Assembly: GCA_028376655.1 (NCBI GenBank)
Contig: JAONAZ010000003.1
Location: 18,109-82,108 of the forward strand
DNA from: Acidimicrobiia bacterium
GTDB taxonomy: Bacteria > Actinomycetota > Acidimicrobiia > Actinomarinales > Actinomarinaceae
DNA length: 64,000 nt
Direction of reading: 5' to 3'
The notes under the pieces were generated by a model. That model was not told the origin of the DNA and made no database searches. It saw only the letters and a program-made list of their open reading frames with translations. A program made the translations under genes and the position numbers. Each line of letters begins with the position of its first letter. Within the stretch, counting starts at the first letter, position 1. Positions 6,524-52,866 of this stretch are shown here, in pieces.

Positions 6524-6615
6524 ACGCTTTTCTTCTTATGTCTATTTGACTTACGACGTTTTCTATATTTATGTTTAGACATTTTTTTACGTCTTTTTTT
6601 AATCAAAGATCCCAT
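6520..6615 (-). CDS. 30S ribosomal protein bS22 (actinobacterial small basic protein)
   Basis: This 31 aa ORF is below the ORF-track cutoff and reads MGSLIKKRRKKMSKHKYRKRRKSNRHKKKSV. It matches the mycobacterial bS22 pattern MGSVIKKRRKRMSKKKHRK. Its stop shares the CTAG tetranucleotide with the convergent PAC2 stop. Confidence 0.8.
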   Translation of the reverse strand: MGSLIKKRRKKMSKHKYRKRRKSNRHKKKSV

Positions 6616-6685
6616 AAATTAAATTTTTTCCTTTTTACCTAACTGCGAAATTCTAACGCATTTTCATCATTAATTGAAAATCTTT

Positions 6686-7543
6686 TTAAAGTTTTTTGTT
6701 CTCTGAATACCTTATAGCTTTGTTTAGAGTCATGACACTATCATCATCATTTGGAGATCTTTTCAATGCCCATAATCCCCAAGTAATCATTGATAGTATT
6801 TCAAAATACTGAAATTTTTCCTTCTCTTCATTCGTTTTAATGCCGATTTCATCAAGTGCTTCACTTCTTAGGTTTTTATCTAAATCAAACTTATTTTGGC
6901 AAAATAAATCAGCATAATCAAAATATGGGTCTCCCATCGACGAGTACTCCCAGTCGATGAGAAAGGTCTCATCTTTATATATAACAAAATTACCGGGGTA
7001 TAAATCTTGATGGCACGGGTTGTTGTTTATTCCAATTTCATTTAACTTTTTAACGATTTTTAAACCTACCTCTTTTGATTCTTCTTCAATTGGATTTGAA
7101 ATATCTGCAATATCACTAAATACACTTAGTGGAGAAAAGTTTTTTTTAAATATTAGGTCTGAGTTATGTAATATTTTTAATTTACTAAACGCATTATTTC
7201 TCATTTTTGGATTCTGAAAATCATAAGATTTATATGTATATATATCAAAAAATTCTGAAATTTTAATTCCCGTCTGTTCATCAAAAATTAGATAGGGTAA
7301 CGTTAAGCCATACTCTTGAGCTTTTGAAGTATTGTGTTTTTCAGATATTCTATTAATAACATCCGGGTTGTCTCCTGGAATTCTCAATACAAATTTTTTA
7401 TTATCAACATTCACAACGTAACTAGTATTTGTTATACCATCTAGTGTTGAGATTTCATAATTACTCTTATCTTTTGACTTAGAAATGTTATATTTTAAAA
7501 AAATTTCTATCACTTTACTAGTATTGAACATATTCATTATCAT
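6686..7543 (-). CDS. Choline/ethanolamine kinase-like (APH superfamily) phosphotransferase
   Basis: The 285 aa ORF has the Brenner-type catalytic motif HQDLYPGNF followed by IDWEYSSMGDPYFDYADLF, as seen in ChoK/LicA-like kinases. Confidence 0.65.
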   Translation of the reverse strand: MIMNMFNTSKVIEIFLKYNISKSKDKSNYEISTLDGITNTSYVVNVDNKKFVLRIPGDNPDVINRISEKHNTSKAQEYGLTLPYLIFDEQTGIKISEFFDIYTYKSYDFQNPKMRNNAFSKLKILHNSDLIFKKNFSPLSVFSDIADISNPIEEESKEVGLKIVKKLNEIGINNNPCHQDLYPGNFVIYKDETFLIDWEYSSMGDPYFDYADLFCQNKFDLDKNLRSEALDEIGIKTNEEKEKFQYFEILSMITWGLWALKRSPNDDDSVMTLNKAIRYSENKKL

Positions 7544-19927: not shown

Positions 19928-20094
<167 letters not shown>

Positions 20095-20101
20095 AGTCTT
20101 G

Positions 20102-20187
20102 CGGAGGGAGTGGGATTCGAACCCACGGTATGGAATACATACAATAGTTTTCAAGACTATCGCCTTCGTCCGCTCGGCCATCCCTCC
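20102..20187 (-). tRNA. tRNA-Ser (anticodon UGA)
   Basis: This is a class II tRNA with acceptor GGAGGGA/TCCCTCC, anticodon arm ATAGT-CTTGAAA-ACTAT and T-loop GGTTCGAATCC. Confidence 0.9.
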
Positions 20188-20209
20188 AAAAAGGTATAGT
20201 TCTTCTGCG

Positions 20210-20298
20210 CGGAGGGAGAGGGATTCGAACCCTCGAAGGGGATAAACCCTTACACGCTTTCCAAGCGTGCGCACTAGGCCAGACTATGCGATCCCTCC
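20210..20298 (-). tRNA. tRNA-Ser (anticodon GGA)
   Basis: This is a class II tRNA with anticodon arm CACGC-TTGGAAA-GCGTG. Its 5' half is identical to that of tRNA-Ser(CGA) at 20803. Confidence 0.9.
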
Positions 20299-20802: not shown

Positions 20803-20891
20803 GGAGGGATCGCATAGTCTGGCCTAGTGCGCGACACTCGAAATGTCGTAAGTCTTTTTAGGCTCCGTGGGTTCGAATCCCACTCCCTCCG
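20803..20891 (+). tRNA. tRNA-Ser (anticodon CGA)
   Basis: This is a class II tRNA with anticodon arm CGACA-CTCGAAA-TGTCG and T-loop GGTTCGAATCC. Confidence 0.9.
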
Positions 20892-27953: not shown

Positions 27954-28026
27954 TGGAGATGATGGGACTTGAACCCACGACCCCCTGCTTGCAAAGCAGG
28001 TGCTCTTCCAGCTGAGCTACATCCCC
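27954..28026 (-). tRNA. tRNA-Ala (anticodon UGC)
   Basis: I read GGGGATGTAGCTCAGCTGG..., anticodon arm CCTGC-TTTGCAA-GCAGG and the G3:U70 identity pair in the acceptor. Confidence 0.9.
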
Positions 28027-28115
28027 TCGCAATTAATATTATGCCTCTGATTTCGATGTAAATGAAAAAATTTTATAAATATTTTTTAATTGTGACTATT
28101 GTAAATAAGACATAA

Positions 28116-28190
28116 GGGCCTATAGCTCAGCCTGGTTAGAGCGCATCCCTGATAAGGATGAGGTCGCTAGTTCAAATCTAGCTAGGCCCA
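28116..28190 (+). tRNA. tRNA-Ile (anticodon GAU)
   Basis: I read GGGCCTATAGCTCAGCCTGGTTAGAGC, anticodon arm CATCC-CTGATAA-GGATG and T-arm GCTAG-TTCAAAT-CTAGC. Confidence 0.9.
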
Positions 28191-41149: not shown

Positions 41150-41683
41150 CTAATCGTCAAGATTCTCGAGAGGGTTTTCGGGTTGGCAGATTTCAAATGC
41201 TTCCTGAACTTTTTCTGATTCAAAATCAATATTTGCATCTCTGAATGCAAAGAATCCAAATTCACCAGGTTTAGGATCTGGAAAATCGATTCCCTCATCT
41301 CTCATGCATTGCGAAAATTCTAGAGATGCATCAACTAAAGCTGCTTCAACCTCTGGATCGAGATCAAATTGTTCTGGTAAAGCTTCTCTTAAAATATCTT
41401 CACAATTAACAAAAGCTTCATCGAATTCTTCTTCATTCTCTATATTGAGATCATCAAATTCGGGGTTTCCATCGACATCGAAACTTGGATCAGGAAAGTT
41501 TATACCTTCTTCTCTCATGCATCGTGCAAAATCTAAAACACCTTCCTCAAAAGTTTTCTCAACTTCAACAACTTCTATTTGCATTGTACTTTCTATAGTT
41601 GCTACACCTTCTGACAATTCTTCACCACCAATTGTGCAAGCTGAGACAAGAACCAATGTAAAAGTTAAAATTATATTTTTCAT
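41150..41683 (-). CDS. Acidic Cys-pair-module lipoprotein, paralog 1 (unrecognised family)
   Basis: The 177 aa ORF has lipobox LVSAC and two modules starting FARCMREEGINFPDP and FSQCMRDEGIDFPDP, each closed by a second Cys. It overlaps the ABC permease gene by 4 nt. Confidence 0.6.
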   Translation of the reverse strand: MKNIILTFTLVLVSACTIGGEELSEGVATIESTMQIEVVEVEKTFEEGVLDFARCMREEGINFPDPSFDVDGNPEFDDLNIENEEEFDEAFVNCEDILREALPEQFDLDPEVEAALVDASLEFSQCMRDEGIDFPDPKPGEFGFFAFRDANIDFESEKVQEAFEICQPENPLENLDD

Positions 41684-42861
41684 TTTCTAACTGCTTCTGC
41701 TGGCTGTATTTTTGAAGCCTTAATAGCAGGATAAACTCCTGAAATTGCCCCAATTAATAATGCCAATAAGATTGCACCTAAAACTTGGCTTACAGGTATC
41801 GAAAATACTATATCTGTATAATTTGTATAACCAAGGGTTATACCAGTTCCTAAAAATACTCCTACAAGTCCGCCTATTCCAGATAATACAATGCTCTCTA
41901 GTAAAAATTGATATCTTATCTCTTTACGAGTTGCTCCGATAGACCTACGCACGCCAATCTCCATTCTTCTTTCAAGAACTGACATAACCATAACGTTTGC
42001 AATAGCTACCCCTCCTACAAGCAATGCAACAGAACCAAGGCCAAGAAGTAAATTTGTAAATGCTGCGTCAGCAGCCTCTTGTGCCTCTAATGCATCAGAG
42101 GGTCTAGAAACTTGAACTTGATCTGGATTTTCTGGATTCATTGAGGGCGCTATTACTTCAACAACATCTTCTATGTATGAAGGATTTGCCCTAACATAAA
42201 TTGTTGTTGGTTCTTTGTCTATATCAAAAAGAGTTTTCGCAACTCCATATCCAATAAATACTGATCTGTCTAAGTCTGGATGAATTTTTAACTCATCTAA
42301 AATCCCTACAACACCAAACCACTCATCACCAATTAAAATTTTTGTAGGAGTTTCTAGGGTATTTATTCCCAATCTAGAAGCAGTAACACTACCTAAAACC
42401 GTAACTGGAATGTTTGATAGACCATCCTGTATGAATCTTCCTTCAATTAAATTTCCTCCAACAACCTGATGGAGTTCTGGACTTGTGACTATAGTTGATA
42501 TTCCACCACCTTCGAACTGAGAAATAAAATCACTGCGTCTTACGATTAAATCTGCTTGAGTTGTAGAAGTAACTTCTTCTACTGGTCCTATCCTTTCAAC
42601 CATACCCACAACTCCATCAGGTAGTTTCTCCTGGGTTCCAAAGAAGCCTGCTTGTGGAGAAGCTTTTATTAGGTTTGTACCAAGAGATTCAAGAGTTGCC
42701 AATAAATCTGCACGACCAGATGCTGAAATACCTGTTACAGCAACTATTGCCGCAATCCCTATTCCTATGCCAATTGATGTTAAGGCTGCTCTACCTCTTC
42801 TTGCTCTTACTCCATATAACGCAACAAAAAAAAGATCTTTAATTTTTAATCTCTGTTTCAT
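41680..42861 (-). CDS. MacB/FtsX-type ABC transporter permease with a large extracytoplasmic domain
   Basis: The 393 aa ORF has TM1, an ectodomain of about 220 aa and then three C-terminal TM segments (FtsX fold). The order ATPase-permease matches MacB-like systems. Confidence 0.85.
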   Translation of the reverse strand: MKQRLKIKDLFFVALYGVRARRGRAALTSIGIGIGIAAIVAVTGISASGRADLLATLESLGTNLIKASPQAGFFGTQEKLPDGVVGMVERIGPVEEVTSTTQADLIVRRSDFISQFEGGGISTIVTSPELHQVVGGNLIEGRFIQDGLSNIPVTVLGSVTASRLGINTLETPTKILIGDEWFGVVGILDELKIHPDLDRSVFIGYGVAKTLFDIDKEPTTIYVRANPSYIEDVVEVIAPSMNPENPDQVQVSRPSDALEAQEAADAAFTNLLLGLGSVALLVGGVAIANVMVMSVLERRMEIGVRRSIGATRKEIRYQFLLESIVLSGIGGLVGVFLGTGITLGYTNYTDIVFSIPVSQVLGAILLALLIGAISGVYPAIKASKIQPAEAVRK

Positions 42862-43542
42862 TTATGCAACGATCTTTCCATCAGTTAAAGTTATTACTTT
42901 TTTAAATTTCTTTGCATGCTCTTGATTGTGAGTAATCATAACTACAGTTTTTCCCTGCTTGTTTAATTCTTTAAGAATATTGAGAATATTCATTCCAGAT
43001 TCTTTATCTAAGTTCCCTGTTGGCTCGTCAGCAAGAATAAATGCTGGATCTTGCACGAGTGCTCTTGCAATGGCAACTCTTTGCTGCTGTCCTCCAGACA
43101 GTTCTGTTGGTTGATGTGTTATTCTGTCACCTAAACCAACATCCTCTAATACTTCTGCTGCTTTTTTTAATCTTTCTTCCCTTTTGATACCTTGATAAAG
43201 TAAGCCTTCTGCAACATTTTCCTGAGCAGTTAGACCAGGAAGTAGAAAAAAACTTTGAAAGATAAACCCAATTTTTTCACCCCTAAATTTTGACAACTCA
43301 TTATCTGAGAGATTTGAAATATCTTGACCTTCTATCTCTACGGTACCTTCAGTTACTGTGTCTAGTAAGCCAATCATATTGAGTAATGTTGACTTGCCGC
43401 TACCAGATTGACCAACTATTGATACAAGGTCACCTTCTTGAATTTCTAAAGTGAGTTTGTCTATAGCCTTAACTTGTGGCGGCCCTTCGTAAATTTTGGA
43501 TATATTTTTTAAAGCAATTACAGTTTTTTGTTTTGATTTCAT
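42862..43542 (-). CDS. ABC transporter ATP-binding protein (MacB/LolD-like)
   Basis: The 226 aa ORF has Walker [10 protein letters not shown], signature LSGGQQQR, Walker [12 protein letters not shown] and an H-loop (ITHN). Confidence 0.92.
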
Positions 43543-45125
43543 CTAGGTACAACTACCATTTGTCCTTTTTGAATATTTCCAATAATTTCTACAAATCCAT
43601 CTGTAAATACACCTATTTCAACAGCAACATAAGTGGTATCTGTTCCAGAATCTCCATCAAATACTTCACCTTCCGTGTCTCCACTGAATACTTCTACCGC
43701 ATACCCACCTTCAGCTAAAGCTATTAAGGCATTAACGGGTACATATAAAACATTCTTAGATACTTCAGTTGTAACAAATACTTTTACTGGAGCTTGGTCG
43801 TAAACTTCAATAGATTCTGGATTAAGAACATCTAATGTCACTTCTATGAAATCACCAGCTTGTGTTTGTGTAACAACTTGATCTATGAAGGTAATTATTG
43901 TTGGGACCCTTTCGTCCGTTGGTAGTTCAATTTCTACAGTATCACCTAAAGAAACAGTCTCCTGATCTGTTGCATCTACCTGGAATACAACTTCAATTCC
44001 AATAGAAGATATATTATAAAGTTGAGAATTGAGGACGAGAGCTGAACCAAGATCATTTATATATGATCCAACAATAAGCGGGGAGTTAGAAGCATAAGCA
44101 TTGGTTGGTGAAAAAGTTTCTGATTTAGATGAAAGCATGAGTTCCTCAAGCTCTTCTTTTTCTTTGGCTAATTCAGCTACCTGATCGACACCATCATTGT
44201 ATGCGTTTAGTGTGTCATCATAAGCTTTTTGGGCTGTTTCAATTGCTAAAGCTTCTGTTGAGTCAATTGCTGATTCTTTTCCTTTTTCTAATGTTTTAAT
44301 TCTTTTCTGCTCTTCAATTGTCTGCTCTAAGTCCTCAATGGCACCATCTAAAGTTCCATCTGCAGTCTTTTCTTTTGTCTTTGGATTTGATGTGTCTCTA
44401 TATAATGTCAAACTTTGTTCTGCATTCTTGATGGCTGTATCTGCTGCTTGCCATGCGGTGCTTTCCTCAATTGCTGTGTCTTTAGCATCATCCAACTTTT
44501 TCTTCTTATCGTTGACCTGCGTTAAAGTGGTTCCTCCATCTTCAATTGTCTTCTCAATAGCTTCAACAGCCGACTCTTTTAAATTGATTGCAACTTGTTC
44601 TGTCGAAGTTATTTCTGATTTAGTATCAATTTTGTAGTCAATGTAAAGAGAATTTAACATGGCCGAAGTTATCTCATCAAATGTCTCGTCTGGAATAAAA
44701 CCTTCAGAAGAATAACCCAAAAACTGTAAAGCTTTTTCGAGTTGTAAAACATCTGGTCCAGACTTTGAATTTAAATCTAATGTCCTGTAAAAAGGTATCG
44801 ACCCTTCAACTAAAATTACAGGCTTGTTGTCAACTGCAAAAAGGATTTCTCCATAATTTACTACTGTTCCTTCTTCTGGAAGATAAGTAACCACTCCAGC
44901 AATAGGGGTTTTAAGAATTTTGCTGTCGGTTTGCCTTAGTGTCCCGTTATATTCTTCTTTTTTTGATAAATCACCCTGTTGGATACTTACGGTTGTTAAT
45001 TCTAGGGTTTTACTATTAGTTGAGGAATCAGTGTTTTGAGTACCAAAATAATAACCTCCATAAGCAAGAGCAGTTATGGTAATTAACACATACAGGTTTT
45101 TTAATTTAAATATATTTTTTATCAT
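43539..45125 (-). CDS. Membrane-fusion (HlyD/efflux adaptor-like) protein with an inserted peptidoglycan-binding domain
   Basis: The 528 aa ORF has an N-terminal TM, a lipoyl-like hairpin (GVVTYLPEEGTVVNYGEILFAVD), a PG_binding_1-like segment (GPDVLQLEKALQFLGY), a long coiled coil and C-terminal beta-barrel domains. Confidence 0.72.
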   Translation of the reverse strand: MIKNIFKLKNLYVLITITALAYGGYYFGTQNTDSSTNSKTLELTTVSIQQGDLSKKEEYNGTLRQTDSKILKTPIAGVVTYLPEEGTVVNYGEILFAVDNKPVILVEGSIPFYRTLDLNSKSGPDVLQLEKALQFLGYSSEGFIPDETFDEITSAMLNSLYIDYKIDTKSEITSTEQVAINLKESAVEAIEKTIEDGGTTLTQVNDKKKKLDDAKDTAIEESTAWQAADTAIKNAEQSLTLYRDTSNPKTKEKTADGTLDGAIEDLEQTIEEQKRIKTLEKGKESAIDSTEALAIETAQKAYDDTLNAYNDGVDQVAELAKEKEELEELMLSSKSETFSPTNAYASNSPLIVGSYINDLGSALVLNSQLYNISSIGIEVVFQVDATDQETVSLGDTVEIELPTDERVPTIITFIDQVVTQTQAGDFIEVTLDVLNPESIEVYDQAPVKVFVTTEVSKNVLYVPVNALIALAEGGYAVEVFSGDTEGEVFDGDSGTDTTYVAVEIGVFTDGFVEIIGNIQKGQMVVVPR

Positions 45126-45188
45126 TGTTCTAGTTACCTTAGTTTATTAAACCTGTAAATTTTCTGAGAAATTATTTTTATAAGTTTC

Positions 45189-45788
45189 TTAATCATCCCA
45201 CTCCTCACCTTTCAACTCTTCTGGCAATGTTTCCTCACAGGCTTGCCATGTCTGAACAATTGGGTCATCTTCACTAAAATCCCATTCTTCACTTGTATAT
45301 GCGTCAAGGTTCACATTTCTATTAAAGTAATTGGGATCGGGGACCTTCGGGTATCCATTCTCTCTAAAGCAACTTGCTATATGTAGTGCACTGTCTAACT
45401 CTTTCGCGGTTTCAGCTGGGTTTTCAAATTGATTCTCGTCTGCAACTCCCCATAAATTATACTCCAAAGCACAGTCTTCTATTTTGCTCCATAGTTCCTC
45501 TTGTTCTTCAGTGGTCAAGGTTTCAAAGTAGGAAGCAATAGTTGTATATGCATCTAAAAAGTTTCTTGGTTCTTTGAATTTATAACCAGATTCATTTACA
45601 CACTGAACAAGGACTAATGGGGCATCTTCATCTGAAATTTCTTCCCGTTCATCTGTAAGTTCAATGCCAAGAGCAATCGCCTCTTTTCCTTTATCGGTAT
45701 CTGAAACGGAAACAATAGCTTGTTCTTCTTGTTGAAATAATGAACAAGCTGTAAATAAAACTAATATTATTGAGGCTTTTCTGTACAT
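45189..45788 (-). CDS. Acidic Cys-pair-module lipoprotein, paralog 2
   Basis: The 199 aa ORF has lipobox LFTAC and modules LVQCVNESGYKFKEP and IASCFRENGYPKVPDP, each with a closing Cys. Confidence 0.6.
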   Translation of the reverse strand: MYRKASIILVLFTACSLFQQEEQAIVSVSDTDKGKEAIALGIELTDEREEISDEDAPLVLVQCVNESGYKFKEPRNFLDAYTTIASYFETLTTEEQEELWSKIEDCALEYNLWGVADENQFENPAETAKELDSALHIASCFRENGYPKVPDPNYFNRNVNLDAYTSEEWDFSEDDPIVQTWQACEETLPEELKGEEWDD

Positions 45789-45813
45789 ATAAGATTATAA
45801 ATTATACATAGCT

Positions 45814-46404
45814 TTAACTTCCACCTTGTTGTGGGGGTTCGCGTCCAAGATCATCAAAACACTCTGCCCGTACTTCTCTGATTTGTTCTTGTAAGTATTG
45901 TCCTGACTGAACAAGCTCAGAAATTATACTTCTAAGTGATCTTTCTGCGTTAGGATCTTCAACCTCTATCCCTTTTTCTCTAAAACATCGTGCAATTTCA
46001 AGCGCGGAATCTAACTGTTCTGCGACTTCTTCTGGATTCTCAAAATCTGCTGTGCCACCTAGTGGAATGTTGTTATCTTCAGCACAAGTCTCTATAGTCT
46101 CAAAAAGTTCGTCTCTACCTTTTTGATCAGCAGCTAAAAATACCGGTTGCAAAACGCTTCGTAAACTCTCATCATTTTTAGGATCTGTAATATCATATCC
46201 ATTTTCTCTTAAGCACCTAGCTAGTAAAAGTTGTGCATCTTCAGGAGAAATTATTTCTTGAACGACCTCTTCCGTAATAGTTTCAACTGTTGTGTCGCTT
46301 GATAAATTATTTACAGAAATAACTCCTTGCGAGTCATCTGACGAGGAGCACGCAGAGATAAGAACAAATATAAGTAATAAAGTGTTGGTTAAGTATTTTT
46401 TCAT
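45814..46404 (-). CDS. Acidic Cys-pair-module lipoprotein, paralog 3
   Basis: The 196 aa ORF has lipobox LISAC and modules LARCLRENGYDITDP and IARCFREKGIEVEDP, each with a closing Cys. Confidence 0.6.
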   Translation of the reverse strand: MKKYLTNTLLLIFVLISACSSSDDSQGVISVNNLSSDTTVETITEEVVQEIISPEDAQLLLARCLRENGYDITDPKNDESLRSVLQPVFLAADQKGRDELFETIETCAEDNNIPLGGTADFENPEEVAEQLDSALEIARCFREKGIEVEDPNAERSLRSIISELVQSGQYLQEQIREVRAECFDDLGREPPQQGGS

Positions 46405-46459
46405 GGTTACATTTTAGTAAATGTGTATTGGACTAGGGAGAAAACCAATACACAAATAC

Positions 46460-46939
46460 TTAACTACTGCCTTTCGACTTATGGTGTCCTTTTCTGTGAT
46501 GACTTTTAATGCTGTCTTTAAACTCTTCTTCTGAAATTACACCATCTTCAAGCTCCCCTGAAAAGCGTTCTTTAAATCGATCTATTTTTTCTTGATCTAT
46601 AGTTGTTACAGAATCTAGTTCTACTATCGTAATTTCTTCATCTTCAAGCATTTCATTAATTAGATTTTTGATTTCTTCTCTTTCCGCTTTTATCGTTAGT
46701 TTTTTTGATTCAAGAGCTCTCAATACGCTATCAGACTGATTCTGAGACAGAGTGCCCTCTTCAACAAGACCTATTAAGACACCCTCTAGAAGATTGTGTT
46801 TATCAGCTTTGTCATTAGAAACCTTTTTTTCAAAAAAATTCTCTCTAACTTGAGGAGCTTCAGAGGCATAAGATATACCCATAATGCCAACACCAAGAGT
46901 AAGACCAAAAACGCCTATTCCTAATAATAATCTTTTCAT
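46460..46939 (-). CDS. Secreted/anchored helical protein with a His-rich basic tail (positional analogue of CpxP/Spy-type accessory proteins)
   Basis: I set the start at the Met preceded by an AAGGA SD (MKRLLLGIGVFGLTL...). The body is charged and helical with one LTxxQ-like motif (LSQNQ), and the C-terminus reads HHRKGHHKSKGSS. The gene is divergent from the RR/HK pair. Confidence 0.5.
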   Translation of the reverse strand: MKRLLLGIGVFGLTLGVGIMGISYASEAPQVRENFFEKKVSNDKADKHNLLEGVLIGLVEEGTLSQNQSDSVLRALESKKLTIKAEREEIKNLINEMLEDEEITIVELDSVTTIDQEKIDRFKERFSGELEDGVISEEEFKDSIKSHHRKGHHKSKGSS

Positions 46940-46990
46940 ATTCGTCCTTTCTTTTTCATACTCTTTTGTAACAGTTGCAACCTTGGGATA

Positions 46991-47018
46991 TTCTGTGAAA
47001 CCTGAGAAGTTTCTGAGA
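46991..47018. promoter_or_regulatory. Three phased CTG(T/A)GA direct repeats in the divergent promoter region (response-regulator site candidate)
   Basis: CTGTGA at 46993, CTGAGA at 47002 and CTGAGA at 47013 are spaced 9 and 11 bp apart. They lie between the - strand operon start (46939) and the RR start (47070). Confidence 0.3.
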
Positions 47019-47069
47019 TGAGTAATAGCCAACACTTGATAAATTCATTTATGTTGTCATTATTAACTA

Positions 47070-47747
47070 GTGGTAAAAAAAATACTTTTAGTTGAAGACG
47101 ATAAGAAAATATCAGAATTAGTCAAAGATTCTCTGCAAGAAGAAGGCTATGTTGTAGAACAATCTTTTGATGGAGAAGATGGTTATTTTAAGATTATCGA
47201 AAATCAACCCGATCTAGTAATCCTAGATATAATGATGCCAAAAATGAACGGATATAAAGTTTGTGCGAAAGTAAGAAAAATTGGAATTACCTCACCAATT
47301 TTAATGCTAACTGCAAAAAATGGTGAATATGATGTTGAAGAAGGTCTGGACACTGGTGCAGATGACTACCTGAAAAAACCATTTTCTATGGTTGAACTTT
47401 TGGCTAGAATTCGAAAGCTCTTAAGAGTAAGTAATCCAGAAATAAATATATTAGAGTTTCAGGCTTTAAAGGTTGATCTGAAATCAAGAAGAGTTACTAA
47501 TAATGATATTGAAATTAAGCTAACCAAGCAGGAGCTTGATCTTCTAAGTTTCTTATTAATAAATAGTGGAAATATTGTATCTAAAAATGAATTATTGGAA
47601 GAAATTTGGGAAATCTTGTACCCAAGTGAAGAGGACGAAAATAAAGTTGAAGTATATATAGGCTATCTGAGAAAAAAGCTAAAACCATTTAACTTAGATG
47701 GACATATTCATACAGTTCGTGGATTTGGCTATAGGTGGAATAATTGA
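47070..47747 (+). CDS. OmpR/PhoB-family response regulator
   Basis: The 225 aa ORF has a GTG start, a receiver domain (DD, ILDIMMP phospho-Asp, K at PF) and a winged-helix C-terminus (TVRGFGYRW). Confidence 0.9.
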   Translation: MVKKILLVEDDKKISELVKDSLQEEGYVVEQSFDGEDGYFKIIENQPDLVILDIMMPKMNGYKVCAKVRKIGITSPILMLTAKNGEYDVEEGLDTGADDYLKKPFSMVELLARIRKLLRVSNPEINILEFQALKVDLKSRRVTNNDIEIKLTKQELDLLSFLLINSGNIVSKNELLEEIWEILYPSEEDENKVEVYIGYLRKKLKPFNLDGHIHTVRGFGYRWNN

Positions 47748-49012
47748 AAAACATTGGCATAAGAACAAAAATTATAATAATCACACTTATTATTCTTGGT
47801 GGTGGATTTTTTATTGCTCCAGAAATCTTAGAGGAAGTTGCTGAGACCAGATATAGAGGAACTATGGAAGATGGAAGGGAGAAACTAGTAAAACAACTAG
47901 AAAAAAATTATGAAAAAATAAATCTCAGAAACACTCCGCGTATAGGTGACTATTTTGTATTTGTTTATGATAAAGAAAGTGGAAAACTAATAAGAGAATA
48001 TAGCTTTTTTCCCCCACGTCTCATTGATGATTACAATTTAGCAAAAAACCAATTTGCAATAAATGAAGATGATTTAAATTTTATAAAAACCGAAAGTACA
48101 GACAAAAAAGTAAGTATTATTGTCGGCTTTAGTGAGTCAACTTCTAGGAATATAGTTGACGGCCTGGAAAGATTTTTTGTGCTGAGTTATCTTTTGGCTT
48201 CAATATTTGTCGTATTAGGTATCTTAATTTCTACAGAAATAGCATTAAAACCTGTAAGCAGATCTATCAAAAAAATATCTGAATTTGAACCGTTATACAA
48301 AATGGAAAAACTTGATGATGTGAAAAGCAATGATGAGATTGGGAAGTTGATTTCGACATTTAATTCTCTTCTTGAAAAAGTTCACATAAGTTCAATAAGT
48401 CAGAAACAATTTATTTCAAATGCCTCACATGAACTAAAAACACCTTTAACAAGTTTAAAATTACAAATCGAAAAGTTGAAAAAACAAAATAATACAGACG
48501 AGAAAACTTTCATTGGGATTGAAGAAGATGTGATTGAAATCCAATCAATAATAGAAGCTTTATTAATCCTTGAGACTTCTACTAAAGGTGGTAGTACTGA
48601 TGGGGAAATTCTCTTGAATGAATTAATTAAGAAGACTGTTAAAGGTACCGATGTTGATTTCAAAAATAACCTAGAAATAATGGTTGATTCAAACCAAGAA
48701 ATTCTTAAATTGATGCTTAATAATTTAATTGGGAATGCGGAAAAATTTAAGTCGAACAAAGTAATAATTAGTACCGATATGGTGGATAAAGCTCCCTCAT
48801 TAATCATTGAGGATGATGGAATTGGAATTCATCCAGAAAATTATGACTTAATATTTACTCCCTTTTGGCAAGAAGATGAATCAAGAACAAGAAATGTTGG
48901 TGGTAAAGGTCTTGGTTTGAGTATTGTAAAAAATATTGTTTCAAAATATGGTTGGAAGATTACAGCAGGTAAGTCTGACCTTGGTGGGGCTAAGTTTATA
49001 GTTAGTTTTTAA
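47744..49012 (+). CDS. Sensor histidine kinase with a periplasmic-type sensing loop of about 130 aa
   Basis: The 422 aa ORF has two TM segments flanking an extracytoplasmic loop, the H-box SHELKTPLT, the N-box NLIGNAEKF and the G-boxes DDGIGI and GGKGLGLSIV. It overlaps the RR stop by 4 nt. Confidence 0.88.
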   Translation: MKNIGIRTKIIIITLIILGGGFFIAPEILEEVAETRYRGTMEDGREKLVKQLEKNYEKINLRNTPRIGDYFVFVYDKESGKLIREYSFFPPRLIDDYNLAKNQFAINEDDLNFIKTESTDKKVSIIVGFSESTSRNIVDGLERFFVLSYLLASIFVVLGILISTEIALKPVSRSIKKISEFEPLYKMEKLDDVKSNDEIGKLISTFNSLLEKVHISSISQKQFISNASHELKTPLTSLKLQIEKLKKQNNTDEKTFIGIEEDVIEIQSIIEALLILETSTKGGSTDGEILLNELIKKTVKGTDVDFKNNLEIMVDSNQEILKLMLNNLIGNAEKFKSNKVIISTDMVDKAPSLIIEDDGIGIHPENYDLIFTPFWQEDESRTRNVGGKGLGLSIVKNIVSKYGWKITAGKSDLGGAKFIVSF

Positions 49013-49016
49013 ATGC

Positions 49017-49517
49017 TTATTTCTGCCAACCACACTCTTGTAGCAATGGGGTAATGTCGTCTTTTGAACTTTTTAGTCCACTTAAATCAAGCTTAGGTTC
49101 TTGTTGGCTTGGGTCTGAAACATTTATACCCTTTTCTCTTAAGCATTTAGCTAATTCAAGATTTTCATCATATAATTTTGCAAGTTCTTCTGGGTTTTGT
49201 GAAGATGAATCTGACCAAAGGTTGTATTTGTTAATACAGTAATTAACATCCTCTCCCAGCTGTAGTTCTTCATCTTTGCTTGTGCTTAATTGACTAATTG
49301 TTGTTTTTAAATCTTGTATATCAAAGGGAGTTGTTATGTCATAACCTTTTTCTGCGTTTAAGCACTGAGTTAAAACAATTGGATAATCCTCTTCAAATAT
49401 AGTCGAAGTAGTTGTTGATTCAGCTGACAAAGAAACAACATTTGAATCCGGTCCCGTTGAGCATGCAGTACCAAAAAATAAAACTAATAATGCTGCTACA
49501 AACTGATTTTTTATCAT
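49017..49517 (-). CDS. Acidic Cys-pair-module lipoprotein, paralog 4
   Basis: The 166 aa ORF has lipobox FGTAC and modules LTQCLNAEKGYDITTP and LAKCLREKGINVSDP, each with a closing Cys. It is convergent with the HK gene across a 4-bp gap. Confidence 0.6.
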   Translation of the reverse strand: MIKNQFVAALLVLFFGTACSTGPDSNVVSLSAESTTTSTIFEEDYPIVLTQCLNAEKGYDITTPFDIQDLKTTISQLSTSKDEELQLGEDVNYCINKYNLWSDSSSQNPEELAKLYDENLELAKCLREKGINVSDPSQQEPKLDLSGLKSSKDDITPLLQECGWQK

Positions 49518-49604: not shown

Positions 49605-50807
49605 TCAGACAAATATTTGTGTCTTGGGTTCGATGCCTCCAGTTAACGGCATCGCATATTCGAAAAATTCATTTGTGACATAAGACTTTACAGGATCTAG
49701 AAACTCTAAGGGCATATCTTTTGTGTGTTTTGCCACTTTACGAAGTTCAGTAATCTCAACATCACAATGATATTTTTCAGAAAGTTGTCTTTGTAATATT
49801 ACAGATCCACTTTCTAATTGCTTTGAGGCTACAACAGCGTGTTGCCCTACTCTCTCAGCTTCTTCTGCATCAACTTTGGAAATATCCGCAATAAATGATC
49901 TCTGTAAATAGCCAAAAGTATCTGCTCTTACTCTTGCTCCATCAATATATTCAGAAACTAAGTTGGTTAAAGTATCACCTAAAGCACCTGAACCTGATAA
50001 TTGGATATTTCCATGACTATCTTTTTTTCCTGCCAACTCTGAACCTGTCTGATCAGCATATGTTTGTAAAAAGTATTCTCCTTCTTCATTGTGAACACCT
50101 TCAGAAATTGCAACAACGCACCTTCCTAGGGAGTCGTAAACTTCTTTTACTTCTTTTAAAAATCTATCTATATTAAATGTTTTCTCTGGAACATAAACCA
50201 AATGAGGACCATCCTCCTCTGTTGATTTCCCTAATGTACTCGCTGCTGTTAACCATCCAGCATGTCTTCCCATTAATACATTAATTTTTATCCCACCAAG
50301 ACTTCTATTGTCAGCATCATCACCTTGGAATGCATGAGCTACAAATCTAGCAGCAGATCCATACCCTGGGCAGTGGTCTGTTTCGCGCAGGTCATTATCA
50401 ATAGTTTTAGGAATATGGAATGCCTTCATTTCATATCCAATTTGTTTTGCGCCCTCAGAAACTAGATTTGCGGTCTCAGCAGAATCATTTCCGCCAATGT
50501 AGAAAAAATTTCTGATGTTTTGTTTTTCAAATATTGCAATTAGATTTTCAATATCAGAGTCTGTTGGTTTTTTTCTTACTGAGCCGAGGGCTGCAGCTGG
50601 TGTTTTTCCAATGCCATATAATTGTGCTTCAGACAAATTAGATAAATCAACAAAATCTTCATTCATCATTCCAGCTAGTCCGTGCTTAGCACCTAGTATT
50701 TCATCGAAATCACACTCTACTGCTTCTTTAATAAAACCAACTAGTGATTTATTAATTACGGCAGTTGGTCCACCAGATTGTCCAATAACAGCTTTTCCTG
50801 CTGACAC
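49605..50807 (-). CDS. pfk: 6-phosphofructokinase family protein (ATP versus PPi dependence unresolved)
   Basis: The 400 aa ORF has the PFK blocks SGGPTAVIN, IGGNDS, PKTIDNDL and MGRHAGW. Confidence 0.85.
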   Translation of the reverse strand: MSAGKAVIGQSGGPTAVINKSLVGFIKEAVECDFDEILGAKHGLAGMMNEDFVDLSNLSEAQLYGIGKTPAAALGSVRKKPTDSDIENLIAIFEKQNIRNFFYIGGNDSAETANLVSEGAKQIGYEMKAFHIPKTIDNDLRETDHCPGYGSAARFVAHAFQGDDADNRSLGGIKINVLMGRHAGWLTAASTLGKSTEEDGPHLVYVPEKTFNIDRFLKEVKEVYDSLGRCVVAISEGVHNEEGEYFLQTYADQTGSELAGKKDSHGNIQLSGSGALGDTLTNLVSEYIDGARVRADTFGYLQRSFIADISKVDAEEAERVGQHAVVASKQLESGSVILQRQLSEKYHCDVEITELRKVAKHTKDMPLEFLDPVKSYVTNEFFEYAMPLTGGIEPKTQIFV

Positions 50808-50811
50808 TTAT

Positions 50812-51720
50812 TTAACTCCCGTTTTGATACACAGAAAGAAACCCGAGGTATGATTCAGCAATTTCTGTAACTGCTTCATCCCTAGATTTTTCACCTTCAT
50901 GAAAACTTTTTAGAGCATTCCAGAATATTGACCTACCTATAGCAAAGCCCTTGTAACCATCAACAGATGATCCGGCACGGAGCCACTCGTTAACTTTCTC
51001 ATCTGTAGCACCTCTACCTAGAACTACAGCAATAACATTTTCCCTATCTCCGGTTTTGATTGCGGCAGCTACTTTTTCACAATCTTCAGCTGTATCGAGT
51101 CCTTCTATTTTCCATATATCAGGATCTGCTCCTTTTTCTCTCATCTCTTCTACAACCCTGACCGCTAATTTAGGTCTAATTTCAGAATCATAACGAGTCT
51201 GATCATTTCCTACTGAGGCAAGCTGTTCTTCTGTTGCTGGTACAAGAAATTCTAGAAGAAATTTTTTATCATTTTCTGTTAACCAGTCAGACAATTCCTT
51301 AATCCTTGCCCCTTGAGTTGATCTTACTTCTTCATCATCATCAGGATTCCATCTAACTAAGATTTTTATAAAATCAGCACCAATCTCGTTAATTTTTTCA
51401 CCAAATTGAGCACCGTATTCAAAATCAAAAACTTTTTGGCCTGATTTCTCAACTGGGGCAGCAAACTTAATCCCCATTTCTTTTGCTTTTTGTTGAACAT
51501 CAAGACCAAAAGTTTCATCTACTAAAATTGCAGGTTCTCCTCCGGTTATCCCAGATTCTTTAGCTTTTATGAAGCCATCAAATATAATATTTTTTAGTTC
51601 AGTAACCTTATTTGACTCTTCTTCGGTAGGCTGTCTTCCTTCAACCCCTAAAAGACCCTTAGTTATAGTTCCCCTGTGGTCAAAAGCTAATATATATAAA
51701 TCTTCCGAATAACCCTTCAT
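50812..51720 (-). CDS. DUF2090/Cgl0159-like class I aldolase-fold protein
   Basis: The 302 aa ORF has the N-terminal YILAFDHRGT block, as seen in the aldolase-like domain fused to IolC-type kinases. It lies directly upstream of pfk in the same operon. Confidence 0.55.
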   Translation of the reverse strand: MKGYSEDLYILAFDHRGTITKGLLGVEGRQPTEEESNKVTELKNIIFDGFIKAKESGITGGEPAILVDETFGLDVQQKAKEMGIKFAAPVEKSGQKVFDFEYGAQFGEKINEIGADFIKILVRWNPDDDEEVRSTQGARIKELSDWLTENDKKFLLEFLVPATEEQLASVGNDQTRYDSEIRPKLAVRVVEEMREKGADPDIWKIEGLDTAEDCEKVAAAIKTGDRENVIAVVLGRGATDEKVNEWLRAGSSVDGYKGFAIGRSIFWNALKSFHEGEKSRDEAVTEIAESYLGFLSVYQNGS

Positions 51721-51728
51721 TTTTCTCC

Positions 51729-52691
51729 TTAAACTTTTTCTTTCTGGCTAGTTCTTGAGTACACAACTAAACCTATCAAGATAAACAGTACTAGATAGAG
51801 TATATTATTTTGAAAGACTGAAGAATTTTGTATCTCTTCAGAGTAAAGGTTTGAATAAATGATTCCTGGATCTTCTTGGGATTGTCCTATTTCAGATAAA
51901 GTATTTAACAAGTCAACTGTGCTGGCTCCCCAGTTGTTTGCTAAGTTTTCATCTAAAAAGAAGACATTTCCACTTTGTACCGCAGTAATCTCCCCCCAGC
52001 CAACTCTTGTAGAGAGGTCTTTATTCAAATAGTCAGAATGACCTACGACAATCAGATTTGGATTGGAAGCCAAAACCTCTTCTTCTGAAAACTCAGGATA
52101 TCCACTTCCAAATGGATCTTCTTTTAGATTAGCAACATTGTTTATTCCCAGAAGATTGTAGATTTCGCCTATAAAAGAATTCTCATTTATTGTGTATATT
52201 CCATAAGTAAATCCAATCTCATGGAAAACAGTTATGTTTTCTGATGAAAAGTTTTGTATAATCTCTTCAACATCTCTTTGCATCGCTGAAACGAGTTCTA
52301 ATGATTCATCAGATTTGTTTATTAATGTTCCAATTTCTTCGATTTGTGTATAGACATCTTCAAAATCTCTTGCGGGAGGTAGTAAAGCATAGTTTATTTC
52401 TAAACCTTCTAACCCTTCAATGATTCCATTAAAATCAAAAGCTACTACTACAAGGTCAGGATTCAACTCGATTAAATCTTCAGCAGTTACAGTAAATGCA
52501 TCTATTTTTTCAATAGGTAGTTCTGTTTCTGAAAATGAATCAACCCCGACTAAAAGACTCTCACCTCCTAGCGCTTGGATAACTTCTGTGTGTGTTGTTG
52601 ATAACGAAATAACTCTTTGTTCTATGCTCGACTCTTCAGAGCCTGTACACATCGTCATCAACGCGGCAAGAATTAGTATCTTATATTTCAT
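51729..52691 (-). CDS. BtuF/FhuD-type (Peripla_BP_2) substrate-binding lipoprotein, cobalamin-riboswitch controlled
   Basis: I set the start at the Met preceded by an AAGGA SD (MKYKILILAALMTMC lipobox). The protein has class III SBP blocks (ISLSTTHTEVIQALG, NPDLVVV, VFFLDENL) and an extra C-terminal TM (ILYLVLFILIGLVVY). Confidence 0.75.
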   Translation of the reverse strand: MKYKILILAALMTMCTGSEESSIEQRVISLSTTHTEVIQALGGESLLVGVDSFSETELPIEKIDAFTVTAEDLIELNPDLVVVAFDFNGIIEGLEGLEINYALLPPARDFEDVYTQIEEIGTLINKSDESLELVSAMQRDVEEIIQNFSSENITVFHEIGFTYGIYTINENSFIGEIYNLLGINNVANLKEDPFGSGYPEFSEEEVLASNPNLIVVGHSDYLNKDLSTRVGWGEITAVQSGNVFFLDENLANNWGASTVDLLNTLSEIGQSQEDPGIIYSNLYSEEIQNSSVFQNNILYLVLFILIGLVVYSRTSQKEKV

Positions 52692-52744
52692 AATTTCCTT
52701 TCTTACCACGAGATAAGATTGATACTCCATTCCTTCTCTCGAGG

Positions 52745-52850
52745 ATTGTTGTTTTAATAAAACTAAAAAGGCGACCTGACTTATCTTTCGAATTACAGTT
52801 GCGGGACAGTGTTAGAATTTTACTAACTTCGCTTTTTAACTTCTTTGTTT
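52745..52850 (-). promoter_or_regulatory. Cobalamin riboswitch (compact form)
   Basis: The - strand reads GCGAAGTTAGTAAAATTCTAACACTGTCCCGCAACTGTAA...AAGTCAGGTCGCC. This matches the conserved GGGAA-N-GGTGAAAATCC-N-CCCGCAACTGTAA core and a B12-box-like AAGYCAGG..CC. It sits in the 5' leader of the SBP gene. Confidence 0.7.
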
Positions 52851-52866
52851 AAAGTATGTTAGCAAA

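Follow-up and report, generated by a model that had tools for sequence, protein, structure and literature searches.

Two-module Cys-pair lipoproteins encoded with MacB-type pumps and two-component systems in Actinomycetota, and their expansion in Candidatus Actinomarinales

A stretch of 64,000 nucleotides from an Acidimicrobiia bacterium (assembly GCA_028376655.1, contig JAONAZ010000003.1, positions 18,109 to 82,108), hereafter the window, carries a gene cluster in which four paralogous lipoproteins, LpA to LpD, are encoded together with a MacB-type ABC transporter, its adaptor protein, and a two-component system (TCS) consisting of a response regulator (RR) and a histidine kinase (HK). This region is the Candidatus (Ca.) Actinomarinales version of a conserved actinobacterial cassette. 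The canonical form comprises six genes, namely an OmpR-type RR and a sensor kinase as well as a Cys-pair lipoprotein followed by a peptidoglycan (PG)-binding adaptor, an ABC ATPase and a MacB-type permease, and it is found phylum-wide in Actinomycetota. While the pump and adaptor families are known, the conserved, putatively accessory lipoprotein family on this MacB-type, TCS-controlled envelope pump is new. We tentatively propose, at a probability of roughly 0.45, that the Lp proteins act as extracytoplasmic accessory subunits (of the capture, hand-off or immunity type) of a TCS-induced MacB extruder. The initial annotation of this DNA had put forward a candidate undescribed system with a paralog expansion. 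The expansion is real in this lineage and, judging from family-model scores, is lineage-specific, with one canonical copy (LpA) and three divergent ones (LpB, LpC, LpD); the cassette itself, however, is widespread and normally has a single Lp gene (72 of 80 loci, with two genes in the other eight).

The association of lipoprotein and pump is carried by gene neighborhoods. Genomes were scanned at one per GTDB species with a 10-sequence family alignment, which yielded at least 533 confirmed loci; the best-scoring 80 of these formed the context sample, whose open reading frames (ORFs) were searched with the window's own proteins. These 80 loci belong to Actinomycetes (Nocardioides, Streptosporangium, Nonomuraea, Microbispora, Amycolatopsis, Kitasatospora, Streptomyces), Acidimicrobiia, Thermoleophilia/Solirubrobacterales and a few Chloroflexota. 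Adaptor, ATPase and permease genes lie directly downstream of the Lp gene on the same strand in all 69 loci that offered enough sequence for evaluation, and at least 49 of 55 loci have an adjacent RR/HK pair, with two more missed by the scoring rule. Linkage to MacB, adaptor and TCS genes in other genomes, which had been set beforehand as a test that could refute the claim, is therefore found. Nocardioides shows the order RR-HK-Lp-adaptor(PG_binding_1)-ABC-MacB with 4-nt overlaps at Lp/adaptor/ATPase/permease, Streptosporangium has Lp-adaptor-ABC-MacB-RR-HK with an Lp protein of three modules, and the same Lp/adaptor/ATPase/permease order is present on pSCL4 of S. clavuligerus, whose cassette comprises BB341_RS29835-RS29860 plus RS33850. 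Large replicons of Nonomuraea and Embleya carry five to six family members each, as would be expected if the modules were diversified in specificity.

The frequent presence of a TCS also permits another view, in which the Lp proteins would be co-sensors that partner the histidine kinase and bind its signal or modulate its loop, the pump being merely the regulated output. TCS-linked lipoproteins are an established actinobacterial theme (CseA for CseBC, LpqB for MtrB, HbpS for SenS). Besides the TCS adjacency in at least 49 of 55 loci, this view can draw on a single-module secreted relative in two Nonomuraea loci (L051 15520-15963 (-) and L072 15183-15644 (-); AAFVQCMRSHGLPDFPD...AAVRAC), which has a signal peptide without a lipobox Cys and is divergent from a second RR-HK pair with no pump alongside, and on LpD of the window, whose gene ends 4 nt from the HK stop and is missing along with the TCS from the relative L085. 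Gene order and overlap, however, bind the Lp gene to the adaptor (69 of 69) more firmly than to the TCS. The position of the latter varies among cassettes (upstream, divergent or downstream), and TCS-less loci (L023, L033, L068, L069) keep Lp with the pump, as does L085, a close relative of the window. The TCS families also differ: those of the Streptosporangium and S. clavuligerus pSCL4 cassettes (L082 11982-13768; L086 3665-5499) come closest to VanR-O/VanS-O (at 265-274 and 174-187 bits, short of the cut-offs), and the Nocardioides kinase comes closest to the heavy-metal sensor kinase family, again below the curated cut-off. The cassette appears to recruit different sensor lineages, so that, as far as model scores indicate, its TCS is not one orthologous family, and Lp would track the pump and not one sensor family. 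Homology to CseA or LpqB did not emerge from Pfam and NCBIfam scans. Since the Lp gene is fixed beside the adaptor gene, often overlapping it, while the TCS moves, changes family and can be missing, we favor the accessory subunit and consider the co-sensor rather unlikely.

In the window, the pump operon runs on the minus strand from 46939 to 41150 in the order His-tail gene, LpC, LpB, adaptor, ATPase, permease and LpA, with a Shine-Dalgarno sequence (GAAAGGA) 8 nt upstream of the first ATG at 46939. Genes overlap by 4 nt at 43539-43542 (ATPase/adaptor) and 41680-41683 (LpA/permease), and permease and ATPase genes abut at 42861/42862. The RR and HK genes, themselves overlapping by 4 nt, are divergent from this operon, and LpD is convergent with the HK gene, ending 4 nt past its stop. 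The ORF listing bears out all coordinates, strands, overlaps and the abutment first reported. The features are as follows:

41150-41683 (-): LpA, canonical-like two-module Cys-pair lipoprotein with lipobox LVSAC; start overlaps the permease stop by 4 nt (ORF, five Cys, family model, structure prediction, substitution rates)
41372-41554 (-): LpA module 1 (Cys55...Cys94)
41159-41341 (-): LpA module 2 (Cys126...Cys166)
41680-42861 (-): MacB-type (FtsX-family) permease, 393 aa (Pfam, PDB alignment, hydropathy)
42862-43542 (-): ABC ATPase of MacB/LolD/FtsE type (Pfam, NCBIfam)
43539-45125 (-): membrane-fusion (periplasmic adaptor) protein, 528 aa (homologs, structure prediction and Foldseek; Pfam sub-threshold)
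45189-45788 (-): LpB, divergent two-module Cys-pair lipoprotein with lipobox LFTAC; precedes the adaptor gene, as the Lp gene of canonical cassettes does
45441-45635 (-): LpB module 1
45207-45404 (-): LpB module 2
45814-46404 (-): LpC, divergent two-module Cys-pair lipoprotein with lipobox LISAC
46054-46248 (-): LpC module 1
45829-46020 (-): LpC module 2
46460-46939 (-): His-tail protein, 159 aa, first gene of the operon
46940-47069 (no strand): divergent intergenic region between pump operon and RR, with presumed promoters/operators
47070-47747 (+): OmpR/PhoB-type response regulator
47744-49012 (+): sensor histidine kinase; begins at a TTG codon, in a 4-nt overlap with the RR stop
49017-49517 (-): LpD, most divergent two-module Cys-pair lipoprotein, with lipobox FGTAC
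49206-49397 (-): LpD module 1
49020-49178 (-): LpD module 2

The intergenic region 46940-47069 gave only weak promoter-like matches and no regulator site, promoter and terminator scans being at background. An RR operator shared by the operon and LpD promoters was considered and rejected, as the sole repeat (TTTTCATAyTC, twice) is 5' untranslated and coding sequence around the start codon.

LpA to LpD share one design: behind the lipobox, a disordered tether (22-37 residues) leads to two modules, each about 55-60 aa long and bearing one Cys pair. With the lipobox Cys added, every paralog has exactly five Cys. The four lipoboxes follow a basic n-region and a hydrophobic h-region, with their Cys at positions 15-19; with signal peptides ending in a lipobox of the bacterial type ([LVI][ASTVI][GAS]C), all four are predicted to be lipidated as Lgt/LspA substrates. 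That the proteins are paralogs of common architecture, as originally proposed, holds up well: BLASTP comparisons among them give 23-35% identity (35-92 bits), and a family hidden Markov model built without window sequences recovers LpA at 131 bits (E 7e-42), LpC at 83, LpB at 49 and LpD at 35 bits (E 1.6e-12). All sixteen strings that had been read as opening and closing Cys motifs are present in the translations, and no fifth copy exists within the 64-kb window.

A profile of the eight window modules was searched against 1.84 billion representative proteins and retrieved 3,149 clusters at E <= 1e-3, 709 of them at E <= 1e-10, mostly two-module lipoproteins of Actinomycetota; LpC has 2,120 database relatives. 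Two modules are present in 141 of the best 150 representatives, the remaining nine being fragments or chimeras, and most of these 150 are 170-230 aa long with an N-terminal lipobox. The family motif reads A-x-L-x-F-A-x-C-M-R-x-x-G-V/I-D-x-P-D-P ... F-x-x-A-x-x-x-C, with a Cys-Cys spacing of 35-52 residues (mode 42-43). Alignments of 38 and 124 sequences show no variation at the four module Cys, at a Gly and at (D)P. The Arg that follows the first Cys never varies in module 2 and hardly varies in module 1, and the lipobox Cys is nearly invariant. This upholds the expectation that Cys positions and motif are conserved among homologs. Mature family proteins are acidic (median isoelectric point, pI, about 4; Asp plus Glu 23% of residues) and contain exactly five Cys in 208 of 221 cases. 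These data also bear on the suspicion that there is no functional link at all and that the Lp proteins are hitch-hiking secreted proteins or a compositional artefact of a low-GC genome. The linker regions are indeed of low complexity, but the same motif and invariant Cys recur in high-GC genomes, the linkage of 69 in 69 loci extends across classes, the paralogs are under purifying selection and the modules of LpA are predicted confidently; this explanation is effectively refuted.

An AlphaFold2 model of LpA, computed from the 124-sequence alignment, reaches a predicted local distance difference test (pLDDT) score of 80 over the whole protein and of 88-97 within the modules, and leaves the first 43 residues disordered. 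Each module is modeled as a helix, a short beta-hairpin and a second helix with one Cys per helix, a placement that fits the one inter-helix disulfide per module that we infer. Foldseek comparison of the model with the PDB returned nothing (best E 1.6, template-modeling score < 0.25), and the module had no PDB sequence match. Pfam and NCBIfam assign no family to the Lp proteins of the window or to 14 diverse relatives, yielding nothing at E <= 1 beyond short chance matches (e.g., CHCH/CX9C, E 0.005-0.1). A precomputed Pfam tag, PF28567 on P0271, was dismissed as a faint, spurious match to the yeast family YGL041W_C, and a literature search found no paper on it. Members are named 'hypothetical protein' in every database source, and the Prokaryotic Genome Annotation Pipeline uses similarly generic names on S. 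clavuligerus pSCL4. Keyword searches of the literature, which leave most subscription journals outside their coverage so that absence is not proof, found no characterized member. The initial remark that the module corresponds to no named domain is thus confirmed for Pfam, NCBIfam, PDB sequences and PDB folds, and we are confident that it is an unnamed family with, on the evidence of the model, a predicted new small fold. Public gene calls can obscure it: the LpA ortholog of the relatives L083 (11850-12371) and L085 is annotated as a 122-aa protein from an internal Met, while its frame runs upstream through the lipobox (VKLFCLVVVLSAC) as far as the permease stop, where it probably begins at a non-ATG codon; the annotation thus truncates it.

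The permease contains MacB_PCD (61.9 bits, cut-off 27) and FtsX (73 bits, cut-off 25.5) domains and aligns over its full length to Acinetobacter baumannii MacB (5GKO, 95 bits, residues 7-391; also 5LIL), with further PDB matches to Streptococcus pneumoniae Spr0695 (5XU1 chain M, 87 bits), Bacillus subtilis YtrF (9O9X) and, weakly, LolC. Hydropathy indicates four transmembrane (TM) helices (27-45, about 264-296, 319-337 and 351-369) and places the extracytoplasmic core domain, about 215 aa long, between the first two of them. The ATPase scores 125 bits for ABC_tran, and its best NCBIfam matches are the nucleotide-binding half of MacB (240 bits), DarD and LolD (237 bits). By permease and ATPase the window pump is a MacB-type (FtsX-family, type VII) ABC transporter. 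A PADLOC scan for anti-phage defense yielded a generic LolE-TM match on the permease as its sole match.

The adaptor required more indirect assignment. In Pfam it stays below threshold for HlyD_3 (18.7 bits, cut-off 22.2) and PG_binding_1 (16.1 bits, cut-off 23), its sole NCBIfam match is CzcB/NccB at 24 bits, and it has no PDB sequence relative. Residues of about 31-160 and 350-527, however, align to cassette adaptors of other Actinomycetota, and its AlphaFold2 model (pLDDT 63) is matched by Foldseek to AcrA, MacA, MexA, EmrA and CusB (E 1e-13 to 1e-8, probability 1.0); on these homologs and this model, the protein is best classed as a predicted membrane-fusion/periplasmic adaptor protein. 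Its parts are ordered as a TM anchor, a lipoyl-like half, a degenerate PG_binding_1 remnant (about aa 122-156), a coiled-coil insert and a beta-barrel/membrane-proximal C-terminus. The description of the adaptor as PG-binding, made for the window, is right for the cassette in general and not for this copy. Canonical adaptors have PG_binding_1 at E 1e-10 to 1e-22 in seven of eight loci tested (some also pass HlyD_3 and Biotin_lipoyl), and adaptor homologs, comprising these seven and long Acidimicrobiia forms, score 40-78 bits; in the window the segment keeps DVLQLEKALQFLGY and has lost the second half of the motif. PG binding is the cassette-defining adaptor feature and, by its residual motif, seems vestigial or decayed here. 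The insert of about 190 aa (adaptor aa about 165-345) is specific to the marine lineage and sits exactly where canonical adaptors pass from the PG-binding domain to the beta-barrel. Together with the half-lost motif, it may mark a switch from wall binding to a long helical spacer.

The RR (Response_reg, Trans_reg_C) and HK (HisKA, HATPase_c) have all four domains above the Pfam cut-offs. The identification of permease, ATPase and OmpR-type RR/HK pair from the letters alone proved accurate. The kinase has two TM helices, an extracytoplasmic loop of about 115 aa (aa 29-143) and a HAMP-HisKA-HATPase_c arrangement; no named TCS equivalog model of NCBIfam reaches its cut-off for either protein. The first operon gene encodes a signal/anchor peptide, a helical acidic body and the C-terminal HHRKGHHKSKGSS. 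The protein had been called 'His-tailed', and there are indeed four His in the last 15 residues. The block of TCS, LpD and His-tail gene is present or absent among close relatives. Pfam and NCBIfam offer no family for the protein (E <= 1), and the 80 canonical loci contain no counterpart, which makes it lineage-specific. Kinship with CpxP/Spy/ZraP (LTxxQ), considered because of an 'LSQNQ' string and the His tail, was rejected for want of support in the same scans and loci. In L083 and L084 (both 6556-6996) a gene for an extra 146-aa multi-TM protein lies between the His-tail gene and LpC, where the window has 55 nt. Adaptor, permease, HK and His-tail protein contain no Cys, so that the Lp proteins are the only Cys-bearing extracytoplasmic components of the window system.

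Several of these features could be accommodated by cation or metal handling, in which acidic modules or reduced Cys pairs would bind Cu, Zn or Ca in the manner of a CusF- or NosL-like chaperone, with the His-tail protein as a second binder. The gene logic resembles that of the copper-silver efflux system CusRS/CusCFBA (cusRS, cusC-F-B-A), in which the TCS is divergent and a small-binder gene immediately precedes that of the adaptor, with the pump following, and whose CusB is matched by the adaptor model. Moreover, kinase and regulator score well against heavy-metal TCS models, if below cut-off, the adaptor has CzcB/NccB as its only NCBIfam match, the first operon gene has a His-rich tail, and the family is acidic. 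CusCFBA, however, contains an RND (resistance-nodulation-division) pump, and CusF is a soluble beta-barrel with a His/Met/Trp site, whereas the Lp module, a predicted helix-hairpin-helix, has a Cys pair and lacks conserved metal ligands. A CusF-like site was rejected because no His, Met or Trp is conserved; the Met after the first Cys is V, L or F in LpB, LpC and LpD. An EF-hand- or Excalibur-like calcium site, suggested by a Cys...DxDxDG...Cys pattern, was likewise rejected, given that no scan matched Excalibur or another Ca domain and D-x-D/N-G follows PDP in only 46 of 261 modules. Sensors of other cassettes are VanRS-O-like, none of the 80 canonical loci contains the His-tail gene, and all metal-family matches lie below curated cut-offs, which together leave metal handling clearly unlikely.

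The four copies are set apart by their rate of evolution. Compared with an 87%-identical relative, the ratio of non-synonymous to synonymous substitution rates (dN/dS) is 0.05 for LpA, 0.05-0.09 for the pump genes, 0.13 for LpB, 0.34 for LpC and 0.31 for LpD; all four paralogs are under purifying selection. The second modules of LpB, LpC and LpD share 32-37% identity, above their likeness to the first modules, which implies that the internal duplication is older than the paralog split. Translational coupling to the permease and an evolution as slow as that of the pump mark LpA as a candidate core subunit. This is relevant to the idea that the Lp proteins are cargo, extracted from the membrane in a Lol-like manner or pushed via the adaptor into or through the wall. 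Exporter and cargo genes are often co-encoded, in line with the linkage in all 69 evaluable loci; a lipoprotein-extracting system, LolCDE, belongs to the MacB family (the permease matches LolC weakly in the PDB), and MacAB exports the disulfide-bonded enterotoxin STII, a precedent for modules that are small, compact and predicted to be disulfide-stabilized. LpA nevertheless behaves more as a subunit would, no function is obvious for an acidic two-module protein once exported, and lipid anchor and long tether imply retention at the membrane. Actinomarinales also appear monoderm (PMC7771536) and would lack a second membrane for lipoprotein sorting. We therefore prefer an accessory subunit to cargo, which we regard as improbable. 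Among the three roles initially suggested (cargo, substrate capture or accessory function, decoy), accessory function and substrate capture fit the gene-order evidence best; none is proven.

Assignment to Ca. Actinomarinales agrees with adaptor orthologs annotated as Candidatus Actinomarina sp. (67-68% identity) and a window GC content of about 33%. Four paralogs and a canonical TCS are notable here because this order has been reported to have few paralogs and no two-component systems. Close relatives differ in the block LpD-HK-RR-His-tail, which L083 and L084 share with the window and which is absent from L085 (a 619-kb contig); in L085 the phosphofructokinase-family gene is followed directly by LpC-LpB-pump-LpA. 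A protein of 148 aa, P0183, combines LpD module 1 with the C-terminal His tail encoded by the first operon gene, the junction being '...NPEE|FKD...'. By its junction it is, we infer, a natural deletion variant from which LpD module 2, HK, RR and most of the His-tail gene have been removed, a second and independent loss of the TCS block; the removal of LpD module 2 along with the TCS is a further point for a co-sensor. Synonymous divergence (dS) from L083 is mosaic, at 0.2-0.5 for LpD, HK, His-tail gene, LpC and LpB and 1.1-2.1 for RR, adaptor, ATPase, permease and LpA, which suggests that sub-segments were exchanged between lineages by recombination.

On the other side of LpD, the next gene upstream on the same strand, at a gap of 87 nt, is the phosphofructokinase-family gene (49605-50807 (-)). 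It is preceded by a DUF2090/DeoC-like gene (50812-51720 (-)) and a Peripla_BP_2-type binding lipoprotein gene (51729-52730 (-)), directly upstream of which lies an adenosylcobalamin (B12) riboswitch (52722-52858 (-)) scoring 57.9 bits, above its gathering score. Elsewhere in the window there are a cluster of four tRNAs on the minus strand (19928-20298) and further tRNAs at 20803-20891 (+) and 27954-28190; tRNAs are reported to be recombination hot spots for flexible islands in Ca. Actinomarinales (PMC7771536).

Comparison with known systems places the cassette closest to monoderm MacAB-type (type VII ABC) pumps such as S. pneumoniae Spr0693-0694-0695 and B. subtilis YknXYZ/YtrF, with which it shares a separate ATPase, a four-TM permease with a MacB core domain, and an adaptor. 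It differs in its obligatory two-module Cys-pair lipoprotein, in almost always having a TCS, and in an adaptor with one or two PG_binding_1 domains (in the window a degenerate one plus the 190-aa coiled-coil insert); lipoprotein, PG_binding_1 adaptor and TCS pairing are not among the described features of the solved systems. Lantibiotic immunity modules (LanI, LanFEG and LanRK, e.g., NisI/NisFEG/NisRK) are TCS-controlled and combine a surface lipoprotein that intercepts a cationic membrane-active peptide with an ABC exporter that expels it; NisI consists of two tandem similar domains. The likeness is one of operating logic only, an analogy, as LanFEG is of the ABC-2 type without an adaptor, the Lp proteins match LanI neither in sequence nor in family, and the window has no lantibiotic genes nearby. 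CseA (sigE-cseABC) and LpqB (mtrAB-lpqB) resemble Lp in being lipoprotein genes conserved beside an actinobacterial OmpR-type TCS, but they belong to the TCS operon, whereas the Lp gene belongs to the pump operon, persists without the TCS and is not homologous. A small lipoprotein riding on tripartite pumps, MacAB included, is exemplified by YbjP (DUF3828), an outer-membrane lipoprotein bound to TolC in MacAB-TolC and AcrAB-TolC and recently recognized as a stoichiometric rider (eLife 2026, PMC13082787; PDB 9QGY, 9TG4). YbjP is encoded apart from the pump, and efflux proceeds without it (PMC13082787); the protein has no fold or family similarity to the Lp module, and Actinomarinales have neither TolC nor an outer membrane. 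None of LanI, CusF, YbjP (DUF3828), CseA and LpqB has a Pfam or NCBIfam match to the Lp proteins at E <= 1.

If the Lp proteins are accessory subunits, the kinase would sense an extracytoplasmic stimulus and the regulator would induce the divergent operon. The MacB-type machine, by putative mechanotransmission with a wall-spanning or wall-anchored adaptor, would then expel its substrate from the membrane's outer face or the wall zone. The lipid-tethered, acidic and putatively disulfide-stapled Lp proteins might capture this substrate or shield the cell against it and then pass it to the pump, the substrate most plausibly being a cationic envelope-active molecule. LpA would act as the conserved core subunit, and LpB, LpC and LpD as faster-evolving derivatives that may broaden specificity.

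Several observations weigh against this proposal. A ligand site is not recognizable in the module (D-x-D/N-G loop in 46 of 261, or 18%; His 0.9%, Trp 0), and the conserved residues C, R, G, D and P look structural. LpD shares the fate of the TCS block, whether lost or kept, and the single-module Nonomuraea relatives stand beside an RR-HK pair with no pump; from these two observations, some family members may work with a sensor. Physical contact between Lp proteins and pump is putative, and the choice of the best-scoring 80 loci may under-represent unlinked divergent members.

Altogether, MacB pumps and adaptors are already known, as are efflux or immunity operons under TCS control, while substrate choice in bacteria without an outer membrane is poorly understood. 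We speculate that the Cys-pair module could define a phylum-wide and hitherto unrecognized class of lipid-tethered, disulfide-stapled accessory subunits that give the MacB pumps of monoderm Actinomycetota substrate capture and specificity, as in a 'binding-protein-dependent exporter' with the adaptor as conduit and the TCS as sensor, a generalization that we hold to be doubtful at present. If it is true, four copies in a 1.1-Mb Actinomarinales genome would reflect selection to recognize several envelope-active compounds with a single pump. The family offers a candidate for a missing pump component in Actinomycetota, including the antibiotic producers S. clavuligerus, Nonomuraea and Microbispora. 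Ca. Actinomarinales, contrary to the published view, are not devoid of TCSs, and the retention of four paralogs in a free-living genome that ranks among the most streamlined speaks for a strong ecological role.

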